Source of the DNA: Alphaproteobacteria bacterium
GTDB taxonomy: Bacteria > Pseudomonadota > Alphaproteobacteria > SP197
Assembly (NCBI GenBank): GCA_964291415.2
Contig: OZ219917.1
Coordinates: 1,152,001-1,216,000, forward strand
DNA: 64,000 bases
Direction: 5' to 3'
Of this stretch, positions 6,014 through 21,373 are shown piece after piece. The translations under genes were made by a program, and so were the position numbers. Numbering within the stretch: position 1 is the stretch's first letter; each line of letters starts with the position of its first letter. A model generated the notes under the pieces. It was not told the origin of the DNA and did no database searches. It saw nothing but the letters and a program-made list of their open reading frames with translations.

Positions 6014-6422
6014 CTGTGTGCCGAGCATGACTGGCAGCTTGGAGGTGGAAGTCCTCCATCCAGCCCGATGGCGGCGAAGGATTAGCGAAGCGCAAGGACG
6101 TTGTCGTGAGGCAGGGTCTGAAGGAAGCGTGAAGCAAAGCCGTGAGCGGGTGGACAAGAACCGGATCCGAGGCCTTCCCGGCCGGACGAGCGGGCAGATG
6201 ATCGCGAAGTCCAGGGCCATCAAGGGCCGGAGTGGTGAATCCGGCGGATGTGCGGTGAAAGCGATTGGTTTTACCTCGGGAGGTCTGCGCCGCGTCCGGA
6301 AGCGCCGGACTGAGCGGCTCCGCAAGGGCCGTGATCGCGGTGCAGAAGTCAGCAGAGGGCATAGTAACCGGCGTGCCGGCGAAGGCCTGAACGGTGGACA
6401 GGGCTAGTAGGACGGCAGGCTC

Positions 6423-6987
6423 ATGCGGACCATGCGGCAGAGCATCCAGTTGGAACTGGCCTTGGAGCCGGAAGTAAAGGGTGAAGCCCGGAGCGCCGGA
6501 GACCGAGGAACCGAAGCCCGCATGGCGCGTGCCGAACCCGAACACCCGCGGTCGGGCGGGGACCGACGATGGAGGCGGCCCTGCAGCCCGGCATTGTGAA
6601 GAAGGCGCTGGCGCGTGTCCGGCGCAACAAGGGAGCGCCCGGCATCGACGGCATGACCGTCGAGGAGTTGGGCGCTTATCTGAAGGACCACCGGCCCGAG
6701 AGCAGGTCCCGGCTTCTTGACGGCACCTACGAACCGCGGCCGGTACGGCATGTCGAGATACCGAAGGCATCGGGAGGCCTTCGCCCTCTCGGTGTGCCGA
6801 CGGTGCTCGACCGCTTGATCCAGCAGGCGGCAATGCAAGTGCTCCAGAGAGACTGGGACGCAAGCTTCTCGGAGGCGAGCCATGGGTTCCGACCCGGACG
6901 CTTGGCCCATCAGGCGGTAGAGCGCGCGCGGGAGCACATCCTCGCGGGCTACGTTCATGTGGTTGATCTCGATCTGGAGAAGTTCTT
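6423..6987 (+). pseudogene. ltrA: Intron reverse transcriptase/maturase, 5' part
   Basis: VRRNKGAPGIDG, IPKASGGLRPLGVPTVLDRLIQQA, SHGFRPGR, VDLDLEKF then break. Confidence 0.9.
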
Positions 6988-7014
6988 GGAAGCATTGTCA
7001 TACTGCCCCCCAGC

Positions 7015-9225
7015 TTATGCGGAGTGACCGAAGAGGTCCGGCTTATCGTCTACAACCCTGATACGTAGAGCCTTTTTTCTTCCGGCGCGGACATGGATGG
7101 CGTCGAGTTCGCCACGCTTTACACGTTGCAACACGGTCTGACGGGTCACACCGAGACGCTGCATGGCCTCGATCATCGGGACGTAGCCGGGCGGCGCCTC
7201 TTCCATGAGCCTGGGACGGAACGCGTCCGTGATGCGGATGCGCCACGGGGCTCCCGGCGTGACTTGCTCACCGTCGATGAAGCCGTCATTGAGCCATCGA
7301 TGCACCGTCGAGGTTGCGATGCCGAGTATCTTCGCCGCCTGGGCGATGTTGACCAGCTCGCCATCGGTGGCCGCGGTCGCTGGATCGAAGCACGGAATGC
7401 TCCAGTGCCGGCGGAGATTGCCGACGCGATGGACATTGAAGGGATGCCCGTAGGCGGTTGTCTTGCCCTGGCGATTGAGTATGGCGGCGATCACCGCATC
7501 GGAATGGAACTGAGCGAGGCGGCGGACCAGATCGATGATGTCGTCGTCGGTGCGGACCGCCGCCCGTCGTTTGCGCGGGCGCTCGAGTTCGATCTCGGTC
7601 AACAACCCGGTCCGCCAGCGCAGTGTCAGGTGGATATGATACTCGCCGCGCGGGGCAAGAACGATGACCTCATCGAGCACCGTGCGCAGCAGCTCCTTCC
7701 TGTCGCGAGCCGTCGTCGTGGGCGCATCCCAGGCGCGCTGGAGATCCTCGCCGAGGGCCAGGAGCGAATCGCGCTCGGCGGCATCGAGTTGGCGCGGCCG
7801 GTCGCGATGACGCCGCTCCATCTCATTCTGCGCTTCTTCGAGTGCGTTCAGACACTGCTCCCATTCCCGTTCCAGCCCGCGGGCGACGAGACGATGTTCG
7901 GGCTCGACAGCGCGATACCGGCGCTCGGCCTTCTCGGCCTCGTAACGTGCTCGCTCGACGGTGAGCCCCCATTGCTTGAGCGCCTGATCGTAGTCCGCCT
8001 CGATGCGCTCGACCGCCTGCAAGGCGGCCTTGATGCCGGCCGGTCGGATCGCCTCCAGGACGGCCTTGGCGACCGCCTGGTCGATCTGCACGGCCCCCAC
8101 ATGCAAGCACAGGGAGCGCCGCGCCTCGACCAGCTCCTTGCCCCTGCAATGATATCCGGGCGAGGAGGTCCGGCCGGTGTAGTGGGTCGCCAGGCGGCGC
8201 CCGCACTCGCCACAGATGCCGAGACCCTGCAGCAAGGCCGTTCCCTCACGCACCGCTCCCTTGCCCGCGCCATGCGACAGCGGCCGGGTGTTGCGCGACA
8301 GGCGCTCGAGAATGGCTTCGTGGGTGGACCAGTCGATATAGGCGGGATGATGGTCGTGGATCAGTACCTGCCATTCGGAGCGGGGCAGCCTGCGGATGCG
8401 CGTGCGCACGATGCCGTTCTCGTCGACATGGCGCTCACGCCGCGACTTGCCGTAAGCGTAGGCGCCGGCATAGACCGGATTGGTCAGCACTTCATGGATG
8501 GTGTGATAGGCGGGCGGTTCCCAGCGAAGCTCGGCATGGCGGTGGAAGCGGTGGGGAAAGTGCAGCTTCTCCATCACGAACCAGCGCCACACCCGGCGTG
8601 CCGATCCGAACTCGGCGAATCGTTCGAACACGGCGCGGATCGCGGCCTGAACCTCCTCATTGGGGTCGAGAAGGATCTCGGCGCCGGCCTCGCCCCGGAT
8701 GTATCCGATGGGCTGTCCTCGGTAGAGCTCACCGCGCGCCGCCTTGTTGCGGATTCCGCCATCGAGCCGTGCTCGCAGGATATGAAGCTCCGCCTCGCTC
8801 ATGGTGCCCTTCAGTCCCAGGACGAGTCTGTCGTTGAACAGGCCGGGATGATAGATGCCGTCGGCGTCGCCGATCAGGGTGTCGGTCAATCCGCACAGGT
8901 CAAGCAGTCTGTACCAGTCGGCGTTGTTGCGGGCGAGTCTCGACACCTCGAGCCCGAGCAGGAGCCCGACCTGGCCGAGGGCCACTTCGGCGGTCATGCG
9001 CGCGAAGCCGCTGCGTCCTTCGGCAGTGGCGCCCGAGAGGCCGAGGTCCTCGTCGACGATCGTGATCCGGTCGGAGTGCCACCCCAGATCACGGGCGCGA
9101 TCGGCCAGGGCGTACTGGCGCCGGGTCGACTCGCGGTTGTTCTCGACCTGGGACGGCGAGGACTGGCGGACGTACACGAGGGCACGGCGTTGCCGATGTG
9201 CAGCACAGATCTTGCCATCAGTCAT
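7015..9225 (-). CDS. Large serine recombinase (resolvase + recombinase + Zn-ribbon, C-terminal HTHs)
   Basis: YVRQSS catalytic motif, EDLGLSG, EVSRLARN, LTNPVYAG, CGECG; 736 aa. Confidence 0.93.
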   Translation of the reverse strand: MTDGKICAAHRQRRALVYVRQSSPSQVENNRESTRRQYALADRARDLGWHSDRITIVDEDLGLSGATAEGRSGFARMTAEVALGQVGLLLGLEVSRLARNNADWYRLLDLCGLTDTLIGDADGIYHPGLFNDRLVLGLKGTMSEAELHILRARLDGGIRNKAARGELYRGQPIGYIRGEAGAEILLDPNEEVQAAIRAVFERFAEFGSARRVWRWFVMEKLHFPHRFHRHAELRWEPPAYHTIHEVLTNPVYAGAYAYGKSRRERHVDENGIVRTRIRRLPRSEWQVLIHDHHPAYIDWSTHEAILERLSRNTRPLSHGAGKGAVREGTALLQGLGICGECGRRLATHYTGRTSSPGYHCRGKELVEARRSLCLHVGAVQIDQAVAKAVLEAIRPAGIKAALQAVERIEADYDQALKQWGLTVERARYEAEKAERRYRAVEPEHRLVARGLEREWEQCLNALEEAQNEMERRHRDRPRQLDAAERDSLLALGEDLQRAWDAPTTTARDRKELLRTVLDEVIVLAPRGEYHIHLTLRWRTGLLTEIELERPRKRRAAVRTDDDIIDLVRRLAQFHSDAVIAAILNRQGKTTAYGHPFNVHRVGNLRRHWSIPCFDPATAATDGELVNIAQAAKILGIATSTVHRWLNDGFIDGEQVTPGAPWRIRITDAFRPRLMEEAPPGYVPMIEAMQRLGVTRQTVLQRVKRGELDAIHVRAGRKKALRIRVVDDKPDLFGHSA

Positions 9226-9379
9226 GGTCGATGCTCTCCGCCTGGGGCTTCTCCGGTGCCGCCTTGGCGATGACCTCGGCCAGCCGTTCGAGCACGACGC
9301 GGCGTGTCTCCTCGTCGAGGGCTGTCCACAGCTCCTCGTGCGGTTCCCGGGTTCCCGGAAAGATCAGGTTCAGTTGCAT
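9218..9379 (-). CDS. Small helical accessory protein of the recombinase element
   Basis: MQLNLIFPG...LWTALDEETRRVVLERLAEVIAKAA, overlapping the recombinase start. Confidence 0.5.
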   Translation of the reverse strand: MQLNLIFPGTREPHEELWTALDEETRRVVLERLAEVIAKAAPEKPQAESIDHD

Positions 9380-9695
9380 GACAGGGCTCCGCTTCAGAAC
9401 GAGCGAGCAGAGCATCGACGAGAGATCGCAAGTGCAACAGATCGTGCGGTCCGGCTGTGAGTTGATGACCGGTCCCCGGTTGTCCGGTGGCATCGCCGGG
9501 CACGGCATCCGTCCACTCGACGGGAACAAGACGGCGGCTGCCGTCAGGACCAAGAAGGAGAAGAAGCAGGACGCCGTCCTGCCGGCGAATCTGCTTCAGG
9601 ACTTCAAGCGACTGGCCCTGATAGGGATGCGCCTCGCGCGTAATCCTGACCGAGACCGGAAGCTCACGGAGGTGGGTAGTGTGTCGGGTGGTCCT
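9222..9695 (-). CDS. DUF5372/Y4bD-like ORF with no 5' start codon inside the integrated element
   Basis: Open frame from the junction: RTTRHTTHLRELPVSVRITREAHPYQGQSLEV...GPDGSRRLVPVEWTD. Its stop overlaps the recombinase ATG (ATGA). Confidence 0.6.
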   Translation of the reverse strand, partial: RTTRHTTHLRELPVSVRITREAHPYQGQSLEVLKQIRRQDGVLLLLLLGPDGSRRLVPVEWTDAVPGDATGQPGTGHQLTAGPHDLLHLRSLVDALLARSEAEPCHATEPDLSGNPGTARGAVDSPRRGDTPRRARTAGRGHRQGGTGEAPGGEHRP

Positions 9696-9696
9696 T

Positions 9697-10525
9697 CGAC
9701 CGGGTGAATCACGACATCCTGATGGGACTGGTGGCCAAGTGCGTGGCCGACAGATGCCTGCTCAGGCTCATCTGCGGCTTCCTGACCGCGGGGGTTCTGG
9801 AAGGCGGTGGTCGGTCCAAGCACCAAGAAGACGCCGCAGGGTGGTCCATTCTCGCCCTTGCTGTCGAATTGGATGCTCGACGTTCTGGACAAGGAACCGG
9901 AGAAGCGTGGCCACGCTTCGTGTGCTACGCCGACAGCTGCAGCATCTACGTGGGGTCCCGGCCGGCGTGCGAGCGGGTCATGGCAAGCGTGACGAGGTTC
10001 CTCGCCCGGCGGCTGAAGCTGAAGGTCAATGCAGATAAGAGCGTGGTAGATTGCCCGTCGGCGCGGGCCTTCCTGGGCTTCAGCTTTACCGCTGCGCGGG
10101 CAACGAAGCGGCGGATCGCGCCGCAGGCGCTCGCCCGGGTCAAGACACGGGTCCGGGAGATGACGCGCTGCACCAAGAGTGCCAGCCCTGTTCGTCTTGT
10201 CGCGGAACTCTCCCGCTACCTCATCGGGTGGCGGGGCTACTTCGGCTTCTGCGAGACTCCCTCGGTGCTGCGCCGCCTCGACCAATGGGTCCGACGGAGG
10301 CTCCGCGCCATCATCTGCGACTGTGGAAGCGCGGACGCACCCGCTATGCGGCGCTGCGCCGCCATGGGCCGTGGGCACTGCCGGCGGTTTGAGCCGCCAG
10401 GTCCTTGCCCACGGCCCATGGCGAATCAGCGCCAGCCCTGCGCGCTGCTACGCGCTGCCCCACGCCTCTTTCACCAAGCTTGGCCTCGCGACCCTTGCGA
10501 GCCATGCTACCGCGCAAATCCATCG
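9697..10525 (+). pseudogene. ltrA: Intron RT/maturase, 3' part, frameshifted, YADD changed to YADS
   Basis: DRVNHDILM; TPQGGPFSPLLSN in another frame; FVCYADSC, FLGFSF, GWRGYFG, LDQWVRRRLR. Confidence 0.88.
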
Positions 10526-10696
10526 AACCGCCGTGTACGGACCCGTACGCACGGTGGTGTGGGAGGGGCGGAGCCGCGAGGCTCTCCCCTATCCCGATTT
10601 GCATCGTCCCTCGGACCGGCCGCCGAGCATTGTTCCAGCCGCGATCTACAGTCATCCTCCCGCTTTGCTGCGCTCCCTACGATTGAGGCCCGCACG

Positions 10697-12061
10697 ATGC
10701 TTCTCCCTCCGTTTCTCCGCGTCCTCGCGGCATCCTGCGTCCTGCTTCTGATCGCTCCAATCTGGAGTGTGGCCGACGACGTCCTTCCATCCCCCGCCGT
10801 CATCGAGGCCGATGCGCGGGCGCTTGCAGAGGCGGGTCGCTTCGAGGAGGCGTTAGGCCTCTTGCGGACCTTGGTTGGAGGCGGGACGGTGGAGGCTGGG
10901 ACGCTGTTTCTCTACGGCATGGCGGCGACCGGTGCCGCGCAGCGGCCCGGTCTCGCCGAGGCGGACCGCGATGCCCTGCTGGACGAGGCCATCGCCGCCT
11001 TCCACACGTTGCTGGTGGGACGGCCGGGCCTCGTGCGTGTGCGCCTGGAGCTGGCCCGCGCCTTCTTCCTGAAACGTGAGGACGGGCTGGCCCGACGGCA
11101 CTTTGAGCACGTACTGGCAGGCGACGTGCCCGAGGCGGTCAAGGAGAACGTGGGCCTTTTTCTCGCCGAAATCCGCGCGCGCGATCGCTGGAGCTTCAAT
11201 TTGGGTGTCGCGGTGGCACCCGACAGCAATATCAGCGGCGGTTCGGACGAACGCATCATCTACATCTACGGCTTGCCCTTCGAGCGGGATACCGAGGAGC
11301 TGACCACGTCCGGCATTGGCCTTTCCTTCTGGGGCGGCGCGGAGTACCAAGTGCCGGTCTCCGACCGGATTCGCGTCCGTGCCGGCGCGCAGGCCTCGCG
11401 GCGGGAGTACGAGCGTTCCGTCTTCGACCAGCACTTCGTCGCTCTCCATCTCGGCCCGCGCTGGCTTCTCGGCGAGGCGACGGACGCGAGCCTGCTGGCG
11501 AGCGGCCGGCAGAACTGGTCCGGCACCGCGCCCAACTACCGCGAGCTGGGCGCTCGCCTGGAAGTGACCCACCGGTTGAGTCCTCGCCTGACCACTTCTG
11601 CCCGGGCATCCTGGCACGACCGACGCTACCGCACCCGGACCCACCTGGATGGCCCGGTCTGGGATGCAACCCTGCGCGGTGCGTGGGTTGTCACGCCGAC
11701 GGTGCGGGCCGAGTTGTCCGGCGGCTATGCGCAGCAGCGGCCGAAGTTCCGGCGCGAGCGCCACCGCGGCCGGTGGCTCGGCACAGGCGTCAGCGTGGCC
11801 CTGCCGCTGGGCTTCACGGTCGGCGGCAGTGCGGAGGTGCGCTGGACCGACTACGAGCCGGGCTGGTTCCCCTTCGTCGCCGATGGTGGCCCGCGTGAGG
11901 ACCGTACCCGGTCCTACAGGCTCAGCACCCACAATCGGGCCTTCACGCTCATCGGCTTCAGCCCGGAGTTGGCACTTGTCCACGAGACCCGCGACAGCAA
12001 CGCCCAGCTCCACGACTACCGCCGCACGTCGGGCGAACTGCGCTTCGTCCAGCAGTTCTGA
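10697..12061 (+). CDS. Slam-like outer-membrane translocon (TPR + DUF560 beta-barrel)
   Basis: Signal peptide, TPR RVRLELARAFF, DSNI, barrel strands, RDSN...Y and terminal Phe. Confidence 0.85.
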   Translation: MLLPPFLRVLAASCVLLLIAPIWSVADDVLPSPAVIEADARALAEAGRFEEALGLLRTLVGGGTVEAGTLFLYGMAATGAAQRPGLAEADRDALLDEAIAAFHTLLVGRPGLVRVRLELARAFFLKREDGLARRHFEHVLAGDVPEAVKENVGLFLAEIRARDRWSFNLGVAVAPDSNISGGSDERIIYIYGLPFERDTEELTTSGIGLSFWGGAEYQVPVSDRIRVRAGAQASRREYERSVFDQHFVALHLGPRWLLGEATDASLLASGRQNWSGTAPNYRELGARLEVTHRLSPRLTTSARASWHDRRYRTRTHLDGPVWDATLRGAWVVTPTVRAELSGGYAQQRPKFRRERHRGRWLGTGVSVALPLGFTVGGSAEVRWTDYEPGWFPFVADGGPREDRTRSYRLSTHNRAFTLIGFSPELALVHETRDSNAQLHDYRRTSGELRFVQQF

Positions 12062-12452
12062 ACGAACGGACCTCCGCCTCTTCCGCCGTTCTTGGTGCGA
12101 CCTGCCGGGACCGAGAGCCGGGCATCGCCCTCTTCCACCCGCAGAGGCTGGGCGAGCGTCACCGCAGCATTCCCTTTGCGCCGGGGCCGGTCGGGTGGAG
12201 TGCATGGCTGGTCCCAAGCGGCGACACGCCGGCGATGATGCCGTCCTCTGCGCAGGTGTGGACGACGCCGACTGCCGCCCAGCCGAGCGTGCCGTCGCGT
12301 AGAGCATTGGAGAGGCCCAGAGCCCAGTGTGCCGGTTGACGCACGGCCGACTTGGTCACCAGCAGGCGAACGCCTGGCCCACCCCTTGACATTCACATGG
12401 CGAAAATCCGAAGTATCCGTGGAACCCAAACCAAGGGTGTGAAGGAATTCAA

Positions 12453-13646
12453 ATGCCGCGGCGGCTGGATCTTGCAGCGCTTCTTTCGGGATGTGCCGAC
12501 GACTCGTTCGACGACGGCATTCGCATCGACAGCGATCTCGAACCTCTCGCCGGTCCCGGCGGCGCGATCAAGCCGGCGGTTTACGAATACGGAGCCTATC
12601 AGTTCGACCGGCGGTGGGCCTCTCCCGACGACGGCGAGCCGACACAGGTCATCGTCATCGACAACGTGCCGTCGCAGGCGAACAGGCTCGAGGAAGCCCT
12701 GAGACGGAGCCGCGAGTCGACGTCGATTCCGGAGTTCGTTCTCGACCTCTCGACGCTGCCCCGTCTTCCCGTGCACCTGCCCCGGTCCCTGTCGAGTCTC
12801 CAGTTCCCGCACCGCAATGCGGACGCCTATCTTCGCGACTCGCAACTGGAAGGAGAGGATTTTCTCAAGACCGAGGTCGGCCGGGCGATCTTCGGCGCAA
12901 CGGCCGAGACCTGCGGGCCCTTGATGTCATGGTTCCCGCAGGCGCTGCTCTATGGGTTCTGGCAGTCCCACCTCGGCAAGAAGCGGCAAAACACCAGGCA
13001 CGCACGCGCGTGGGTGTCCGAGATTGTCGGCTGGCGGCCCGCCGCGACCCAGACAAGGATGCTCGGGCTGAAGGGAGACGCTCTCAATCTCAACACCAAC
13101 GACGTCGTGACCTCCAATCCTGACGATCGCACGGCATGGGAGGTCGGCAAGGGCGCGAGAATTGCGGGTGCGAAGAGTGAGAGGCTCTCCGAGATCGGTC
13201 ACGGGCAGGTGGCCGTCTCGGGAGCCGACGCCCGACCGGCGGCGGTCTCCTTCGCGCGCGTGACGCAGCGCGCGACGGTGTCCTTTGCCCAGCTCCGGCG
13301 CGTCAGTCTGGGGGGCGAGTCCGGCGGGGCGGACGCGGCCGCTCGGGCTTTGCTGGTGGCGCTCGGGCTGCACGCCCACCAGCTCGCTTTCGGCAGGGGA
13401 TTCGCCCTGCGTTCCGGCGCCGAGCTTCGACCCCGGTCGACCACCGCGACGTGGCTTGGTGCTACGGGCGACGAGACGATCGATCTCGGTGGGGCCGAGA
13501 CGACGCTGGCACTTCTCGAAGCGGCCAGGGAACATGCCGCATCCCGGGAGGTGCCGCTCGACGGTTGGGGATTTCCCGCGACAGTGCTGACTCCGAAGAA
13601 GAACCTCAGCGCGGCGATTCGCTCGACCTGGCCCGAACTCGACTGA
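12453..13646 (+). CDS. csb1: Type I-G (I-U) Cas7/Csb1
   Basis: IKPAVY, IDNVPSQANRLEEAL, PHRNADAYLRDS, PQALLYGFWQS, SEIGHGQV, LRSGAEL. Confidence 0.92.
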   Translation: MPRRLDLAALLSGCADDSFDDGIRIDSDLEPLAGPGGAIKPAVYEYGAYQFDRRWASPDDGEPTQVIVIDNVPSQANRLEEALRRSRESTSIPEFVLDLSTLPRLPVHLPRSLSSLQFPHRNADAYLRDSQLEGEDFLKTEVGRAIFGATAETCGPLMSWFPQALLYGFWQSHLGKKRQNTRHARAWVSEIVGWRPAATQTRMLGLKGDALNLNTNDVVTSNPDDRTAWEVGKGARIAGAKSERLSEIGHGQVAVSGADARPAAVSFARVTQRATVSFAQLRRVSLGGESGGADAAARALLVALGLHAHQLAFGRGFALRSGAELRPRSTTATWLGATGDETIDLGGAETTLALLEAAREHAASREVPLDGWGFPATVLTPKKNLSAAIRSTWPELD

Positions 13647-15046
13647 TGCTGGCGATCAGCGTCGAGTTCCTGCACGGGACCTTCCGCGGCGACCCGGACG
13701 GCACCGCGCTCACCGGAGGGCTGACCCGGGGAGAGTGGCCACCGTCGCCGGCACGGCTCTTCGCCGCCCTGGTGGCGGCCGACGGGACCCGGCAGGCGTC
13801 ACGGATGACGGACGGTCACGAACTGATCTGGCTCGAAGAACTTCCCGCACCGGCGATTCACGCCCAGCGCGAACCCTGCCATCAGAAGCTCCGTCCGCGC
13901 TTTGTCGCAGCGCAGCGCAGTCGTCCCGCCAAGGCCGCGTACCAGGAGTATCCCGCACGAGAGGCAGCCCTCCAGCGACCGGGCGTGCGGGTCGCCCTGC
14001 GCAACCCTCTCGTGGTGTACCGGTGGAATGTGGAACCGCCGGACGAAAGGACCTTCAAGTCGCTGATCCATCGCGCCGCGCGCGTGGGATACCTGGGCAC
14101 ATCCGACTCCCCCGTCCGCATCCGCGTGGCGACCGAGATGCCGCGCGATGCCGAGAGCGAGGTCTGCGTTCCGGATCCTGAAGGCAACCTGCGCATCCGC
14201 GTCCCTCGGCCGGGCGATGTCGCCGTGCTGGACCGCATGTTCGACGTCTGGCAGGAGCGGGGGGCATCGGTGACCCGCTCCCAGTTCCCTCAACTTCTCC
14301 ATTGGCAGACGTACCGGTCGCCTGGCGGTTGCGATGCTGTGGAGAGCGGAGACGTGGTGGCCTGGCTGCGCCTGAGCCCGGCCCTCACCGGCAGGCGGAT
14401 TTCCTCGTTGACCGCGCTCTTCAAGGCCGCCCTTCTCGACCGTCATCAGCGCATGTACGGCGATCCGCCCGCCGTGCTGCACGGTCATGGATTCAAGGAA
14501 AGGGGATACGATCTCGCCCGCTACCTGGCGCTGCCGGACATCGGCATGCCGCGCTCGCGCGGCCGCATTCATGGTCTCGCCCTGTGGCTGCCGCCGGGAG
14601 TCGACCGCGAACAGCAACGCAAGGCCCGCGATGCGGCGTTTGCCATCGACGTGCTCGTCGGTCGAGGCATCGAAGTATCCGTGGAACCGCGCGGGGATGA
14701 AGAACGCCTCTGGGCCGCCAATCCGCAGCGCTGGCGTGGACCGTCGTCGACCTGGGTCACGGCGTTCCCCGTGATCCACGAAAGGAGGGGCGTTCCCGGC
14801 CTCCCGGAAGCGGCCCGATGGTGCCGTCACGCCGGCCTGCCCGATCCGGTTGCCTTCCAGTCGTCGCGCGCGCCGCTTCTTCCCGGCGCGATCGATCTTG
14901 CGCCGTCGGAAGTCAACCGGCCCGAGCGGCCCGCGCTCCCGTATTCTCACGCCGAGTTCCGCTTCGCGGAGCCCGTGAGCGGGCCAGTCGTTGTCGGCGC
15001 CGGGCGGCAGCGCGGTTTCGGCCTCTGCGTGCCGATTGATGGCTGA
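13646..15046 (+). CDS. csb2: Type I-G Csb2 (Cas5/Cas6 fusion)
   Basis: EWPPSPARLFAALVAA, YLGTSDS, LHGH, G-rich loop GPVVVGAGRQRGFGLC; TGATG coupling to csb1. Confidence 0.92.
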   Translation: MLAISVEFLHGTFRGDPDGTALTGGLTRGEWPPSPARLFAALVAADGTRQASRMTDGHELIWLEELPAPAIHAQREPCHQKLRPRFVAAQRSRPAKAAYQEYPAREAALQRPGVRVALRNPLVVYRWNVEPPDERTFKSLIHRAARVGYLGTSDSPVRIRVATEMPRDAESEVCVPDPEGNLRIRVPRPGDVAVLDRMFDVWQERGASVTRSQFPQLLHWQTYRSPGGCDAVESGDVVAWLRLSPALTGRRISSLTALFKAALLDRHQRMYGDPPAVLHGHGFKERGYDLARYLALPDIGMPRSRGRIHGLALWLPPGVDREQQRKARDAAFAIDVLVGRGIEVSVEPRGDEERLWAANPQRWRGPSSTWVTAFPVIHERRGVPGLPEAARWCRHAGLPDPVAFQSSRAPLLPGAIDLAPSEVNRPERPALPYSHAEFRFAEPVSGPVVVGAGRQRGFGLCVPIDG

Positions 15047-17866
15047 CACAACGCCCACATCCGGCAGCGGAGTACGGTCGGTCACCGCGCAGCGGATTCC
15101 TCCGTCGCCCACATTCACCGAATTCTACCGAGCCATCAACGGGCGCGATCCGTTCCCCTGGCAGGCGCGCCTTGCCGACTGCGTCGTGGAGAGCGAGCGG
15201 TGGCCGCCGGTGATCGGCATACCGACCGGTCTCGGCAAGACGGCCTGCCTCGATATCGCGGTGTGGTGGCTGTCGACCCAGGCGGACCGCGTGCCGGCGC
15301 GTCGCAGTGCGCCAACGCGAGTCTGGTGGGTCGTTAACCGGCACCTCCTCGTGGACTCGACGGCCGGGCACGCGAGAGACATGGCACGCGCGCTCCACGA
15401 TCCTGTCGGCGCGGGGATGGATGCCGCCGGGTGCGATGTTGCCAGGCGCGTCGCTGAACGGCTTCGTTCACTGTGGGTCGATCCCGCCGCGCCCCGCTGG
15501 ACGTGATCAGCCTTCGGGGCGGCATCGCCTCGCGCGCTCCCACGGACCCGGCGCGGCCGACCGTCATCCTGTGCACGCTGGCAACGTACGGCTCTCGCCT
15601 TCTGTTCCGGGGTTACGGGTCCAGTCGGCCGTCCGTCGACGCCGCGATGGCCGGTACCGACAGCCTGGTGCTGCTGGACGAGGCGCATCCCGGGGTACAC
15701 CTGAGAACACTGATCCCTGCCCTTGCCGCCTGCAGTCCCGCAGCGCGGGACCTGCTCGGTGCGAACCGGGCCCGGCCAACGGTTGTTGCGTTGACGGCCA
15801 CCGGGGATGTCGCGCAAGACGACAGGTTCGAACTGGATGGCGAAGACGAGACGCACCCGGAGGTCCGCCGACGACTGGACGCTGTGAAACCGCTCGACGT
15901 GGATGTGGTTGACGGAAGGACGGCAAAACGCCTTGCCGGGGCGGCTGTAGCGCTCGTGCAGCGGGCGCCCGCGCTGGCTGCAAGTCTCGTGTTCGCCAAC
16001 ACCCCGACGACGGCGCGCGAGACGCTCGATCGCTTGCGCCATGCGCTTCCGGATGCGGAGATCCTGCTTCTCACGGGACTCGCGCGCGAACGCGAGGCAG
16101 CGCGGCTTCGTGCCCGCGTGCTTGATCCGGAACACGGGATGGCCACGGCGCGTCCCGCCGACGCACCGCGCCGGCATCACCTGATCGTCGTGGCGACGCA
16201 GACCCTGGAAGCGGGAGCCGACATCGACGCTGAATACCTCGTCACGGAGGGGTGCAGCGTGCGTGCGCTCACGCAACGGCTGGGCCGCCTGAATCGACTC
16301 GGGCGGTTCCCGCATGCGCGTGCAACCTACGTTCATGTCCTGCCATCCGGGTCTCGCAGGGCAAGCGCATCCGACACGGACTTCGACGACTGGCCGGCGT
16401 ACGGACGGGAGCCAGCCATTGTGCTCGAGCGGTTGCAGAAGTCGCATGCCGGCGGCGGAGCCGGAACCATCGGACTCTCTCCACGGTCCATGGCCTCGGT
16501 ACTGGGACCACCGCTCGACCATCCAGGCCGTGCGCCGGAGGTCCTTCCCGGCCTGTTGTGGGAATGGACGAAAACGACAGAGCCTCCCGAGGACGAGGCA
16601 CCGGTGGAACCCTATTTCGTCGGCATCGCCAGCCCGCGGCTTTCGGTGACCGTGTTCTGGCGTGCGCATGTCCCGGATTCCGGCAGGCGGTTGTGGCCGC
16701 GAGCCACGGACCGCGAAACCATCGAGGTGTCATTCACAAGAGCGCGCGAAGCGCTGAGCGAAGGAGTGATCCGCCGGCTGGCCTCGGACGGCGTCACGGT
16801 AGAGGCAGTGTCCGCAGGCGACCTGCGTCCCGGGGACCGGATCGTCATCGCCAGTGACGCGGGACACATGGACCGGTTCGGGTGGAATCCGGGAGCCTGC
16901 GGCCCCGTCGTTGATGCCTCGCTCGCTGGCTTGGGTCTGCCGCTTGATGCCGTCGCCATCCGGCGCCTGTGCGGCGTGGATATCGGTGGACTCGTAGACA
17001 CCGCCCTGGGGATCACCGCCGACGGTCGCGAAATCGACGAGACGGAACGGTCGGAAGCGATCACGGACATCCTTGCCGCACTCAGGAACGCGCCGGTGCC
17101 GGAGGGATGGCAGGAGGCAGAGTGGACCGGGTTTGTCGGCAGCCTTCGCCCGCAGGTTCTCAGACCTTGCGACGAAGTACCTCGCCTGATGGTCGAACAG
17201 CCGCGTGACGAGACATTGAACGATGAGTTTGACGAACGTTCTTTGTGTCATGTCGCGATCGAACTGGATCAGCATGGTCACACTGTCGGGGCTCGCGCAA
17301 GCAGGGTGGCCGAACGGATTGGCCTGCCCGATAGTTTACGGGAAGTGGTCGAGCATGCCGCGAAACTGCACGACATCGGCAAGGCCGATGCGCGATTTCA
17401 GCGGTGGCTCGACCCGCGGCGCGAGAATGGTCCGCCGCTCGCGAAATCGGACGTTCCAAGTCACCGCTGGGAAAGGATGCGGCTTTCGTCCGGCTGGCCC
17501 ATAGGAGGACGTCACGAGGAGCTCTCCGCTCGGCTGGTGCGTGCATGGTTGGCGTCGACACCCGAGTGGGGCACCCCGCTTCAACGCGACCTGCTGGTGC
17601 ATCTGGTGATCAGCCATCACGGAAAGGGCCGCCCGCTGGTGCCGCCGGCGACCGATGGTACGGCCTGCACCGTGAGCGCCGTCGTGTCAGGAGTATCGGT
17701 GACGGCAAGCGCGGATCTCGCGATGATCGACTGGGAGCAGCCTGGCCGCTTCCGGAAGCTGCAGGCGCAATTTGGGCCGTGGGGACTGTCACTCCTGGAA
17801 GCCATCGTCATCCGGGCCGATCACGCCGTCTTGGCCGGAGTGGATGGAACACCGAAGGACTCCTGA
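15039..17866 (+). pseudogene. cas3: Type I-G Cas3 (helicase + C-terminal HD) with one frameshift near 15495
   Basis: PFPWQARL and PTGLGKT in the 14991 frame; DEAH, TQTLEAGADID, QRLGRLNR, HDIGKAD, RHE, SHHG in the 15473 frame. The frameshift may be an assembly error. Confidence 0.88.
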
Positions 17867-18762
17867 TGCACACGTTCAACTGCCCAGGGCTTCCCGCATC
17901 TTGGGTCAATGGCTGGCTCGCAGGAATCGGCGCTACGGTGCTCGATCGCCGCATCCGGCTGCATTGGACCGCAGAGGATGCGCCCGTGGCGGTGCTCTCG
18001 TCAGCCGAACTCAACCCAGTCGACGCACTGGTCGAATCCTGGCCTGACGAAGCGTTTCTGTACGACCTGCCGATCGCCAAGGAGTGGGGTGACGCGGGCG
18101 AACTGGGGCGAAACGTGCCGGTTGAACAGTTTGTTGAACGTGCGTGCGCGGCGCGCGGCCACCCGCATGCCTGGACGCTCTCCTCGACCATGACTGACTT
18201 GAGCATCGATCGGAACGGTGAGGTCGCCCATGCCCCGTTCGACCCTCCTGTCCCCAGGGGATTCTCGATTCATGAACGACTGCTCAAGGTGCACAACGAA
18301 GCAACGCCAGTGTCGAGAGGGCTCCTGCAAGACTCCCTTTTGGGTCTGGGAGAACGCGTCAGGGGAAACGGTCTGGGATTCGACTGCACACGGGTGGGTT
18401 CGCTCGCCGACATGTCGGACAAGTGGATCGAACCCGTCGTCGAGTTGCTGGCGTTCTTCGGCCTGGCGGAGTTTCCGCTCCGAGGCTGGGGAGTGGACCG
18501 TCGGCCCAATCACCACCTCAACCCTGACGAGCGGCAGCGCGGGTGGCGGAAGGTCATGGATAGCGAAGAGCGACGATTTGTCTGGCCTGCTTGGCGACAA
18601 CCTCTGGATGCCGCAGGTATCGACGCGCTGCTCGACGTCTGGAAACCCTGGCGCAAAGAATCCTGGCCGCCCCTTGGTGTCCACGTCGCGTGGCAGAGCG
18701 TGCGATACCAGCGCAGGGGTTCGGCGGATCCCACCAGAGCTATCGGAGCGGCGTCGCTTTGA
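17866..18762 (+). CDS. Short Cas8g/Csb3-like large subunit (298 aa)
   Basis: Last gene of the I-G operon, TGATG-coupled to cas3; PGL...NGWLAGIG, GLGFD, VELLAFFGL, FVWPAW. Confidence 0.7.
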   Translation: MHTFNCPGLPASWVNGWLAGIGATVLDRRIRLHWTAEDAPVAVLSSAELNPVDALVESWPDEAFLYDLPIAKEWGDAGELGRNVPVEQFVERACAARGHPHAWTLSSTMTDLSIDRNGEVAHAPFDPPVPRGFSIHERLLKVHNEATPVSRGLLQDSLLGLGERVRGNGLGFDCTRVGSLADMSDKWIEPVVELLAFFGLAEFPLRGWGVDRRPNHHLNPDERQRGWRKVMDSEERRFVWPAWRQPLDAAGIDALLDVWKPWRKESWPPLGVHVAWQSVRYQRRGSADPTRAIGAASL

Positions 18763-18975
18763 CGCACCAACCCGTCATTCCAGTCTTCGTGAGCGAGCAC
18801 GTCGTCTACTGTCCACGACACAGTGTACGCTGATCCACCGACAATGGCGTCTGGACCGACAACGCTCACACTGCTACAAGGCCAGCATGAGGCATTATGG
18901 TAACCTTCTCGTCATTCCGATGACTGAAGTGGGACGCGGTTGCCCCTAACTGACCGCAATTCGCCGTGAGTGGCA

Positions 18976-19304
18976 GTGTCGCCGGGGTGTCAATCCTGGC
19001 CTTCGTTGAGCGCCTATCAGCAGCTTGAACTGTGATGAGTACGTTCGTTTGTGTCGCTAGGGCTTCGACCCTGGCCTTTATTGAGCGCCGCGGTTGGGCA
19101 GCATGACATGGAGGCACTGCTGAGTGTCGCCGAAGATCGGACTTTGGTCGGGCCAAGCCATACAGCCGCCAGCTTTTGTCGAGCTCCAGCACCGACCTGT
19201 GTCGGGCGGAGTTCAGCCGTGCCACTCCAAGCCAGCGTCGCCTTTGCTGTTGCAAGTTCCCCGGCTGCAAGCGTGTCATCGCCGTACGGCTCGATCACAG
19301 AGCG
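18976..19304 (+). CRISPR. Degenerate type I-G CRISPR array (2 clear + 3 diverged repeats)
   Basis: GTGTC-initiated units at 18976, 19051, 19124, 19199, 19273 (period 73-75). R1 GTGTCGCCGGGGTGTCAATCCTGGCCTTCGTTGAGCG and R2 GTGTCGCTAGGGCTTCGACCCTGGCCTTTATTGAGCG are 37 nt; spacers are 36-38 nt. Confidence 0.75.
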
Positions 19305-19639
19305 CCATCATCGCCACTTCACAAGATGGCTCGTCATGGAGGCCAGCAACATGCGACAGAGCGCCGGGCGCTTCACCTTGATCAGCTTGATCCACTTCAC
19401 GTCCGCGTCCGACAGCGTCCAGGTGTCCTTGAAGGCAGCGCCCACCAATTATGAGCTGATCGGAACAGCGTAGTTGGCCTTGGAATTGAAGAGCGGGACT
19501 TAGTGGATCATGTTGACCGCCGTGCTCCTGTGCCTGATTCTCACCAACAAACTGAATCATAACACAAAAACGGATACGGCGGCACACTCTTCATGCAAGA
19601 TCCGGGCTAGTCGGCTAGAGGCAAGGCTACACTAGCCCT

Positions 19640-21087
19640 GGTTGTGTCCCACCGCGTGGTGTAGGAGTTCTGGCTCCGCTGGAAGTTGTGGGTAACTGGC
19701 CCGCCGCAGCGACCACCACGAGTCAGGCGGCGGGGGGCCAGTTATCCACAACGGCGGCCATCGCGGTTCCGGTTAAGGTTGGGTTTGCACAATCCACCTG
19801 ACCGGAGGAGTACCACGATGACCACCAACGACATGATGACCCTGCAGGCCCTGTTGGAGAAGAGCTCTGACAGCGATCTTCTGCGCGAGATGATCGAGTT
19901 CGCGGCCGGGCGCCTGATGGCCCTGGAAGTGGAGGGTCTGACGGGCGCCGCGCATGGCGAGCGCACACCGGAGCGGATCAACCAGAGAAACGGCTACCGC
20001 GACCGGTTGTGGGAGACCCGCGCGGGCACAGTGGAGCTGAAGATCCCGAAGTTGAGAAAGGGGAGCTACTTCCCCGGCTTCCTGGAGCCGCGGCGGACGG
20101 CGGAGAAGGCTCTGACGGCGGTGATCCAGGAGGCCTACATCCAGGGCGTGTCGACGCGATCGGTTGATGACCTGGTGCAGGCCATGGGCATGAGCGGCAT
20201 CTCCAAGAGCCAGGTCTCCCGGCTGTGCGGCGAGATCGACGACAAGATCGGCGGCTTCCTTGAGCGGCCCCTGGAGGGCGACTGGCCCTACCTGTGGCTG
20301 GATGCCACCTATGTGAAGGTCCGCGAGGCCGGGCGCATCGTCTCGGTCGCGGTGACCATCGCCGTGGCGGTCAACGACCAGGGCCGCCGCGAGGTCCTGG
20401 GCATGGCGGTCGGCGCCTCGGAGGCCGAGACCTTCTGGACCGACTTCCTGCGTTCCTTGGCGCGCCGCGGGCTCCGGGGTGTCAAGCTGGTGATCTCCGA
20501 CGACCACAAGGGTCTCAAGGCCGCGGTCACCCGCATCCTCGGCGCCACCTGGCAACGATGCCGCGTGCACTTCACCCGCAACCTCTTGGCCCATGCCGGC
20601 AAGCAGGGCCGGGGCGTCGTCTCGGCCTTCATCGCCACCGCCTTCGCCCAGAACAACGCCGCGGACGCCAAGTCCCAGTGGCGCCTCATCGCCGACCAGC
20701 TCCGGCCCAAGGTGCCGAAGCTCGCCGCGCTCATGGACGAGGCCGAAGAGGATGTGCTGGCCTACATGACCTTCCCCAGGGAGCACCGTCAGAAGTTGCA
20801 CTCCACGAATCCCCTCGAACGTCTCAACGCCGAGATCAAGCGCCGCACCAACGTCGTCGGCATCTTCCCCAACGAGAACGCCATCACCCGCCTGGTCGGC
20901 GCGATCCTTCTCGAGCAGAACGACGAATGGAGTGTCGGACGCCGATACATGACGCTGGAATCGATCGCTCCCGTGAGCGACAATATCAATCTCATGCTGC
21001 CCGCCGTGGCAGCCTGAGCATCCCGGCCCAACACGCCGGATACCGAGCTGGACGCCAGGCTCTTACACCACCCGGCGGGACACGATC
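19640..21087 (+). mobile_element. IS256-family insertion sequence
   Basis: Imperfect IRs GGTTGTGTCCCACCGCGTGGTGTA / TACACCACCCGGCGGGACACGATC; 8-bp TSD CTAGCCCT at 19632-19639 and 21088-21095. Confidence 0.95.
19818..21017 (+). CDS. IS256 transposase
   Basis: [56 protein letters not shown]. Confidence 0.96.
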
Positions 21088-21373
21088 CTAGCCCTAGAAA
21101 GATAAAGCAGATACCATTGACCTAACGTATGGGACTACAGCGTTGTCGAAGGCGGGTCGAGAGGGGAATGACAGCAATCACTCGCAGAGACGTGGAATCG
21201 CAAGCAGCCACTGATGTTGGACAGGCTGAACTGGGCGCATCGAGCACGTTGAAGCTTCGTTGTAACGCTGTTACGAACGCTTCGCCGCTCCGCAAAGCAG
21301 GATCGCCAACAAAGTTGTAGCGATCTCGCCCGACGATGCACGCTGCAGCCCAATCGCACGAAAGAAACTCCCA

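Follow-up and report, generated by a model that had tools for sequence, protein, structure and literature searches.

The window analysed here is a stretch of 64,000 nucleotides (nt) from an alphaproteobacterial genome (Alphaproteobacteria bacterium, assembly GCA_964291415.2, contig OZ219917.1, positions 1,152,001 to 1,216,000 of the forward strand). The genome, G000, measures 4.44 Mb in five contigs and is 100% complete. The element under study is a run of five repeat-like units (R1-R5) starting at window position 18976, next to the genes of a CRISPR-Cas (short palindromic repeats, clustered and regularly interspaced, with their associated proteins) system of type I-G. An earlier note, made from the sequence alone, had taken these units for a cryptic type I-G array. 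The units and the segments between them (S1-S4) are as follows, with the repeat family and the same-genus genome G019 described below.

18976-19012, plus strand: R1, near-canonical leader-proximal repeat (family matrix score 44.7; one mismatch to the family pattern; tail CTTC + GTTGAGCG intact)
19013-19050, plus strand: S1, spacer of 38 nt, 45% G+C, no target found
19051-19087, plus strand: R2, drifted but recognisable repeat (score 28.6; fold -12.0 kcal/mol; stem with U-G and A-U pairs; tail CTTT + ATTGAGCG)
19088-19123, plus strand: S2, spacer of 36 nt, 30/36 identical in G019 outside a 24-nt duplication there, no target found
19124-19160, plus strand: R3, 5' 26 nt repeat-like with a 7-bp stem, 3' 11 nt unrelated, canonical handle lost
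19161-19198, plus strand: S3, former spacer, no kinship to the other spacers, 58% identical in G019
19199-19235, plus strand: R4, relic repeat with GTGTCG..CGGAGTTCAG and ACTCC kept and extra bases between them, 3' part unrelated
19236-19272, plus strand: S4, former spacer (alignment to G019, pairwise spacer comparison)
19273-19309, plus strand: R5, relic, the in-register GTGTC being its sole recognisable feature

The five units start with GTGTC at 18976, 19051, 19124, 19199 and 19273 (spacing 75, 73, 75 and 74 nt), in register and as the earlier note had placed them. No other chain of at least three GTGTC at 72-76 nt spacing exists on either strand of the five contigs. GTGTC occurs at a frequency of 0.00115 per position genome-wide, which gives about 2e-7 for three extra in-register occurrences by chance; since the five-membered chain is unique in the genome, its register is not due to chance. 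All units are mutually non-identical, R1 and R2 differing at 8 of 37 positions, so that the description of an array in which no two repeats are the same is accurate. The same holds for the expectation that standard finders would miss most of it: a generic repeat search paired R1 with R2 alone (79% over 39 nt), TRF reported nothing at 18976-19304, and Rfam at the gathering score matched group II intron families only and nothing at the array. The proposed common GAGCG end stood for R1 and R2, where it lies at the end of the repeat, and fell for R5, where GAGCG comes 5 nt early (19300-19304). No other array was found in the genome with the family repeat matrix or with a k-mer chain scan. Two k-mer chains elsewhere (C4:375520-376571 and C1:72204-72506) were rejected: they are tandem repeats in coding sequence, with units of 90 and 93 nt, and are rich in acidic residues in one reading.

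The identity of the repeats became clear from loci that carry a homologue of Cas3ext, the product of the gene nearest to the array. At E<=0.001 there were 990 such homologues, with identities of 60% to 92% among the best 120 listed and of 85-92% for the closest, and an alignment of 24 of them was used to retrieve 80 related loci (L015-L094). The 48 distinct consensus repeats of these loci, each 37 nt long, can be summarised as GTGTCGCCGGGGTTCAGGCCCCGGCCTTCGTTGAGCG; they recur mostly every 72-76 nt (range 71-76) and share one layout: 5 nt, a 7-bp stem with a 6-nt loop, 4 nt and 8 nt. The type I-G nuclease Csb2 is reported to cut 4 nt 3' of the hairpin base, leaving an 8-nt 5' handle (PMC9638904), and the family layout fits this cut. 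A matrix built from these repeats was scored along the whole genome and over all window positions. R1 reached the best score of the genome and R2 the second best, the next-best site scoring 1.6; R1 and R2 are thus true repeats of a widespread type I-G family. R3 (-46.4) and R4 (-43.8) fell within the top 0.35% and the top 0.24% of window positions, respectively, and the score of R5 (-85.5) was equalled or exceeded by 27% of them. Consistent with this, in gapped alignments anchored at GTGTC the scores were reached by 7 of 500 shuffles for R3, 4 of 500 for R4 and 179 of 500 for R5. R3 and R4 are recognisable solely in their 5' halves and R5 solely by GTGTC, and the lesion differs from one of these units to the next. 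Related arrays (e.g. L022, L025, L058, L062 and L064) commonly end in a repeat whose 5' half is intact and whose 3' half is unrelated, and R3 has the shape of such 3'-diverged terminal repeats. The spacers are mutually unrelated (pairwise alignment z from -1.2 to 0.7).

R1, R2 and R3 each fold a 7-bp stem at columns 6-12/19-25, with fixed-register energies of -10.8, -12.0 and -7.3 kcal/mol. The claim that the units keep both register and hairpin is therefore right about the register in all five, and about the hairpin in R1-R3 only: in the canonical register R4 and R5 yield -2.3 and +6.3 kcal/mol, and their own best folds resemble those of shuffled sequences (z -0.4 and +0.3). Covariation of the stems had also been proposed. 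The window by itself is too small a sample for this, and the support comes from an alignment of 36 repeats, to which seven loci with unlike repeats contributed 30, the window three, G019 two and L015 one. There, 96.4% of stem cells are paired, a value attained by none of 500 shuffles, four of the seven pairs change on both sides, and the handle columns are at least 90% conserved. R2 is altered at the base of the cleavage site and at the first base of the handle, and its stem together with its T-rich tail matches a terminator-like pattern.

The genes that precede the array, and the remnants between them and R1, are these:

12453-13646, plus strand: csb1/cas7g (TIGR02570, E 1.4e-16; PF09617, E 4.6e-35), one frame, product 81% identical to the L015 protein
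13646-15046, plus strand: csb2, Cas5-Cas6 fusion, the pre-crRNA (precursor CRISPR RNA) nuclease of type I-G (TIGR02165, E 2e-59, profile 1-492 of 492), product starting MLAISVEFLHGTFRG, one frame
15039-17866, plus strand: cas3g, broken into two frames by the loss of 1 nt near 15493-15506 (TIGR02621, E 3.5e-125 from profile position 107)
17866-18762, plus strand: cas3ext, Cas3-extension family, 298 aa (NF049934, E 1.2e-15)
18759-18886, plus strand: 5' stub of cas4 with in-frame stops; the frame from 18756 reads PVIPVFVSEHVVYCPR..*..WTDNAHT, against PVILISAIEHFAYCPR...WSDNAHT at the N-terminus of L015 Cas4
18887-18975, plus strand: leader remnant of 89 nt abutting R1 (aligned locally to the 110 nt that precede the first repeat of L018)

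The profile matches of csb1, csb2, cas3g and cas3ext at 12453-18762, directly upstream and on the same strand, confirm the assignment to type I-G. For the Cas8g/Csx17 large subunit, TIGR04113 gave no match, a search that is uninformative because the control of this profile matched in no genome; the sole hint of Cas8g is a weak PADLOC match to it in Cas3ext (E 0.005). In cas3g, an N-terminal piece (15039-15506) carrying PTGLGKT (Walker-A) runs into a stop at 15506, and the remainder lies in another frame up to 17866. Compared with L015, where the gene is a single open frame of 987 aa, the window is one base short in a C run, and in tblastn the match breaks at aa 197/199, continuing in a second frame.

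The interval between cas3ext and R1 records the loss of the adaptation genes. DNA alignment of the window with L015 extends from csb1 to 109 nt past the stop of cas3ext (74% over 6443 nt), and the homology ends at 18871. In L015 the genes cas4, cas1 and cas2 occupy the 2 kb between cas3ext and the array; in the window the array starts 213 nt after cas3ext. Cas1 (PF01867) had no match in the complete genome, and the control for this search matched in seven genomes. The leader remnant aligned to that of L018 with a score of 33, against 7.6+-1.3 for shuffles (z 19), and to those of L022 and L015 with z of 7.6 and 4.9; five of the ten related leaders tested gave z below 2. At the junction with the first repeat the family has ATTAGCA or ATTAGGG and the window AGTGGCA. 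Leader homology lies directly before R1, which places R1 at the leader end and sets the plus strand as the reading direction of the array. The cas4 stub lies in turn directly before the leader; about 1.9 kb has therefore been deleted, which took away cas1 and cas2 entirely, cas4 for the most part and the leader's distal section. The adaptation genes are thus deleted at this locus, with a stub of cas4 left behind. No sigma-70-like promoter was found in the shortened leader, and a search of public runs listed no RNA run containing the stretch.

A single orthologous stretch was available for comparison. The same-genus genome G019 matches window positions 19081-19497 with 72.7% identity over 417 nt, a segment that includes units resembling R2-R5 and, beyond them, the same truncated methylase fragment. 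This fragment bounds the relic on its distal side, and an insertion sequence gene follows:

19326-19553, minus strand: N-terminal fragment of an N6/N4 DNA methyltransferase (DPPF motif region), with two in-frame stops, ending at about residue 93
19686-21017, plus strand: transposase gene of the IS256 family, beyond the relic (NF033543, E 5.9e-103)

Full-length methylases from L003 and L005 matched the fragment in tblastn with 60-63% identity (E 1e-21 to 1e-22). Its junction with the relic is identical in the window and in G019, the first ~93 codons being left in both. The methylase family has an HNH-like C-terminal end, and several genomes of the genus carry one to four copies of it (L003, L004, L005, L007, L009 and L010). 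Identity between the window and G019 is 73% for R2, 70% for R3, 73% for R4 and 81% for R5, and 83% for S2 (outside the G019 duplication), 58% for S3 and 65% for S4. Pooled, it amounts to 74% for the repeats, 68% for the spacers and 76% for the methylase fragment (40 mismatches in 168 aligned positions, 19326-19500). One disruptive change weakens the R3 hairpin from -7.3 kcal/mol in the window to -1.4 kcal/mol in G019. In G019, searches found no Csb2, no Cas3ext and no family repeat at up to three mismatches; Cas1 is present there on another contig. In G019, where the search for the cognate nuclease found nothing, R2-R5 thus persist, and their divergence keeps pace with that of the methylase pseudogene beside them. 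In G019 the interval between Slam (the gene of a surface lipoprotein assembly modifier) and the relic (L011, 2483-9975) holds unrelated genes, among them a PADLOC candidate defence match (PDC-M06B, E 4.7e-22) and an HNH/HTH protein; this interval, where the window has its cas operon, looks like cargo turnover in a defence island.

With these data we could judge whether there is an array at all, or a chance periodicity of GTGTC inside a gene or pseudogene. Both strands do have open frames of 85-140 aa across the region, the alignment to G019 contains indels of 24, 6 and 6 nt, and R5 gives no repeat signal beyond GTGTC. Against this, R1 and R2 match the repeat family of more than 60 arrays, the leader is homologous and the GTGTC chain is unique. 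Outside the methylase fragment, the crossing frames also lack coding character: none of nine frames examined at 19039-19590 in the window and G019 matched Pfam at E<=1, and the mismatches to G019 are even across the three phases (23/88, 24/90 and 25/90), with no codon periodicity. Nor are the units methylase sequence: searched in tblastn with five full-length methylases, the DNA below ~19320 showed no homology, that of the fragment stopping at about 19326. A chance periodicity is thus refuted for R1-R4 and extremely improbable overall; in the case of R5, GTGTC is possibly the sole true remnant.

The earlier note had gone further and proposed that the units serve as non-canonical guides, CreA-like or homing, rather than being products of decay. 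This view is not supported. It sits badly with the deletion of the adaptation genes, the frameshift in cas3g and the unit-specific lesions, and in the one orthologous locus available R2-R5 drift like a pseudogene and the R3 hairpin is lost, which is the random decay that the note itself had named as refuting. Nor were targets found. The spacer search returned no seed match with a TTN protospacer adjacent motif (PAM) in or around the cas operon and nothing above chance in the host genome, phages or plasmids, the seed position and the TTN motif being assumed from PMC9638904. In the own genome the best matches of S1-S5 were exact over 12-15 nt, or covered 16-20 nt and included one or two mismatches (E>=0.085). 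In the cas region (11800-21200) there were three spacer-seed matches (first 12 nt, up to two mismatches), with the PAMs CCG, CGC and ATC and none with TTN, and full-length spacer matches there equalled those of shuffled spacers. Among phages, S1 alone gave E>=2 and the stretch 19013-19346 one match at E 0.3; the plasmid collection gave no match. The exact string of S1 had no match in metagenome contigs and none in viral contigs, an exact scan that diverged protospacers would escape.

In its most specific form the guide proposal describes a regulatory mini-array of the CreA/CreR type, in which a pseudo-spacer would pair partly with the promoter of the cas genes or of a neighbouring toxin, and Cascade would repress it without cleavage. 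Divergent, degenerate repeats beside a type I cas operon are a hallmark of such mini-arrays (PMC8501985, PMC9458426, 10.1101/2023.03.10.532045, PMC10120712), and a role in silencing alone would tolerate a broken Cas3. However, the units occupy the main array's own site behind the family leader instead of standing alone, neither the seed matches at the cas region nor the partial matches genome-wide offer a target, and the sole ortholog found lies in a genome without detected Csb2 or Cas3ext. In PMC10120712, regulatory mini-arrays are recognised by three features: they stand alone, related loci conserve them, and their seed matches a promoter of cas or cargo genes partially, next to a PAM. The window locus does not stand alone and showed no such seed match, and no conserved counterpart of it was found in a cas-bearing relative. 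The target search already refutes a CreA/CreR-type role, if weakly, and we regard it as very unlikely.

Further insight came from the 80 related loci. The four-gene variant csb1-csb2-cas3g-cas3ext occurs in metagenome-assembled genomes (MAGs) titled Alpha- and Gammaproteobacteria, Acidobacteriota, Vicinamibacterales, Chloroflexota and Rhodothermales, and further in Gemmatimonadota, Latescibacterota, Spirochaetia, Candidatus Synechococcus spongiarum and others; the Cas3ext proteins of L015-L094 (genes at ~10001-10900 in each) are 52-70% identical to that of the window. That the repeat hardly varies between phyla suggests that the system has spread widely by horizontal transfer within a single kind of habitat. 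Fifty-five of the 80 loci are canonical, with Cas1, an array 2.0-2.4 kb after cas3ext and a mean pairwise repeat identity of 0.93-1.0 (at least 0.98 in 50 of the 55). In the same-genus genome G002, too, cas3ext is followed by cas1 and then by 38 repeats. Twelve loci have the array less than 1 kb after cas3ext, and in 11 of these (L020, L024, L031, L044, L067, L070, L071, L089, L091, L093 and L094) the arrays are short and every repeat differs, with pairwise identities of 0.54-0.89. The remaining 13 show contig ends, larger inserts or a single detected repeat. In two loci from Rhodobacterales MAGs, L091 (11654-11910) and L093 (11652-11834), the mini-array is orthologous and the spacers are conserved; L091 has one extra leader-proximal repeat-spacer unit, which mirrors R1-S1 of the window, missing from G019.

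Taken together, these observations make it probable that the five units are what erosion has left of a canonical array of the type I-G Cas3-extension clade, a product of ordinary decay. Regarding the order of events, the neutrality of the relics and the loss of function, we infer the following course. The ancestral order would have been csb1-csb2-cas3g-cas3ext-cas4-cas1-cas2-leader-array, from which the 1.9-kb deletion removed the adaptation genes and the distal leader. Thereafter the repeats would never have been recopied and would have drifted apart. In R1 and R2 the hairpin is still followed by the 4-nt linker and the 8-nt handle; in R3 the hairpin half alone survives, in R4 pieces of that half and in R5 GTGTC. 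R3-R5 were presumably damaged before the split from G019 and would be neutral relics, and the divergence between R1 and R2 is about that of neutral sequence between G000 and G019. Unlike repeats would recombine poorly, so that units would not be deleted. This would be in line with PMC12839519, where terminal repeats of every subtype are more mutated and hotspots of mutation go together with the retention of spacers; "I-G" is not named in the main text of that paper. At most two crRNAs (CRISPR RNAs) could be cut by Csb2, one from the R1 handle, S1 and the R2 hairpin and the other from the R2 handle, S2 and the R3 hairpin. R1-S1-R2(-S2-R3) may still give such crRNAs, while interference has probably been lost, judging from the frameshift of cas3g in the assembly.

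Several observations weigh against decay, or against decay having run its course. The csb1, csb2 and cas3ext genes are intact single frames. The frameshift in cas3g may be strain-specific, or a homopolymer or assembly error in the C run: the one public run found to contain the stretch has a contig (depth 6.16 of 13.9) in which a T is inserted behind 15493, and this insertion, accompanied by two nearby base changes, appears from the codons to restore the frame. This run may itself be the source of the assembly, and a strain with intact cas3g may co-occur with the assembled one. Wherever the stems of R1-R3 depart from the family stem, a G-U or A-U pair keeps them closed, which suggests that the hairpin has been under selection and perhaps still is. 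The alternative end that R3 and R4 were said to share is real in both: the 8-mer CCAAGCCA stands at the handle position of each and is unexplained. An origin by unit duplication was rejected (R3 tail and S3 against R4 tail and S4, z 0.8), and GTGTC...CCAAGCC was found in no related locus and at no other in-register site of the genome. Equally unexplained, G000 and G019 agree at 73% of positions in the relic, compared with 62% at four-fold sites of the Slam gene (n=127); some constraint on the relic, a younger shared history or an uncertain neutral baseline may conceivably lie behind this. Finally, csb1, csb2 and cas3g are each in a single frame in 11 loci where adaptation genes would have little space or none (the drifted-repeat loci listed above minus L044, plus L042), and handle and hairpin are conserved among the repeats aligned from seven close-array loci. 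Because of these two features, a frozen array is not necessarily a dead one.

These points could be accommodated by a frozen but working mini-array, in which loss of adaptation has turned the spacers into hard-wired guides. Csb2 would then cut R1, R2 and the hairpin half of R3 and release two crRNAs (S1 and S2) for interference by Cascade, or for silencing alone if Cas3g is truly broken; R3 would be a functional terminal repeat and R4-R5 older relics. In favour of this, R1 has a full hairpin followed by CTTC and GTTGAGCG, which fits the published cut (PMC9638904), the 7-bp stems are kept in R2 and R3, and the repeats of the seven close-array loci and the window, with their paired stems and conserved handle, the intact effector frames here and in the 11 related loci and the allele that appears to restore cas3g all agree with it. 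Against it stand the frameshift of cas3g in the assembly, the lack of a sigma-70-like promoter in the leader together with the terminator-like R2, the altered cleavage-site and first handle bases of R2, the near-neutral divergence of R1 and R2, the failure of the searches to find a target for the spacers, and the fact that G019 keeps R2-R5 though Csb2 and Cas3ext were not found there. On balance we consider a working array at this locus unlikely. It would similarly be something of a surprise if the window were one case of a recurrent, stable, hard-wired state of Cas3-extension type I-G systems entered after the loss of cas4-cas1-cas2. If it were, short arrays with fixed spacers would be kept over long periods, the repeats drifting while hairpin and 8-nt handle remain under selection and the units being protected from recombinational loss. 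R1-S1-R2-S2-R3 would then yield two crRNAs with R3 as working terminal repeat, and the spacers would act as innate, inherited guides instead of adaptive memory.

Under the decay that we favour, the locus is of value chiefly for annotation, as a leader-bearing type I-G remnant which standard finders miss and which marks a system without adaptation and probably losing interference. It would also provide a dated picture of how an array erodes once recopying of its repeats stops. The wider pattern of arrays with drifted repeats close behind cas3ext, seen among the 80 loci and in many phyla, may merit a study of its own.

Farther upstream, the cas operon is preceded by a Slam-type outer-membrane beta-barrel gene ending at 12061 and by a group II intron at 6100-10598 (Rfam D1-D4 at 6100-6387, 3' end at 10526-10598). 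The frame of the intron reverse transcriptase/maturase continues as the same open frame into the Slam-type gene, and the intron may sit in or just before that gene.

Among known systems, CreA/CreR and cr-like mini-arrays (PMC8501985, PMC9458426, PMC10120712, 10.1101/2023.03.10.532045) resemble the window locus in their degenerate repeats, spacer-sized segments and type I cas operon. They are described as one spacer between two repeats, whereas the window has five units at the position of a main array, without a partial seed match and PAM at a cas or neighbouring promoter and without a conserved counterpart found in a cas-bearing relative. The type I-G system (formerly I-U) of Thioalkalivibrio sulfidiphilus (PMC9638904) shares with the window Csb1/Cas7g, the Cas5-Cas6 fusion Csb2, a Cas3g with C-terminal HD domain and a hairpin repeat of 36-37 nt whose layout fits an 8-nt 5' handle. 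In contrast to that system, the window has the gene order csb1-csb2-cas3g-cas3ext, with a 298-aa Cas3-extension protein (NF049934) and no recognisable Csx17/Cas8g; it lacks cas4, cas1 and cas2, its cas3g is frameshifted and two good repeats are left. Closer still are the canonical Cas3-extension arrays (L015-L094 and G002), which have the repeat family, the leader-repeat junction region and the four effector genes in common with the window. They carry from 4 to more than 100 near-identical repeats, 2.0-2.4 kb past cas3ext and behind cas4-cas1-cas2, as opposed to five unlike units 213 nt past it. As in degenerate terminal repeats and in decaying or orphan arrays generally (see also PMC12839519), degeneracy in the window rises toward the trailer and mutated repeats persist with their spacers, and as in the terminal repeats of L022, L025, L058, L062 and L064, the 3' half is lost first. 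What sets the window apart from those arrays is that three successive units, and not one, are degenerate and that its two good repeats differ from each other at 8 of 37 positions.

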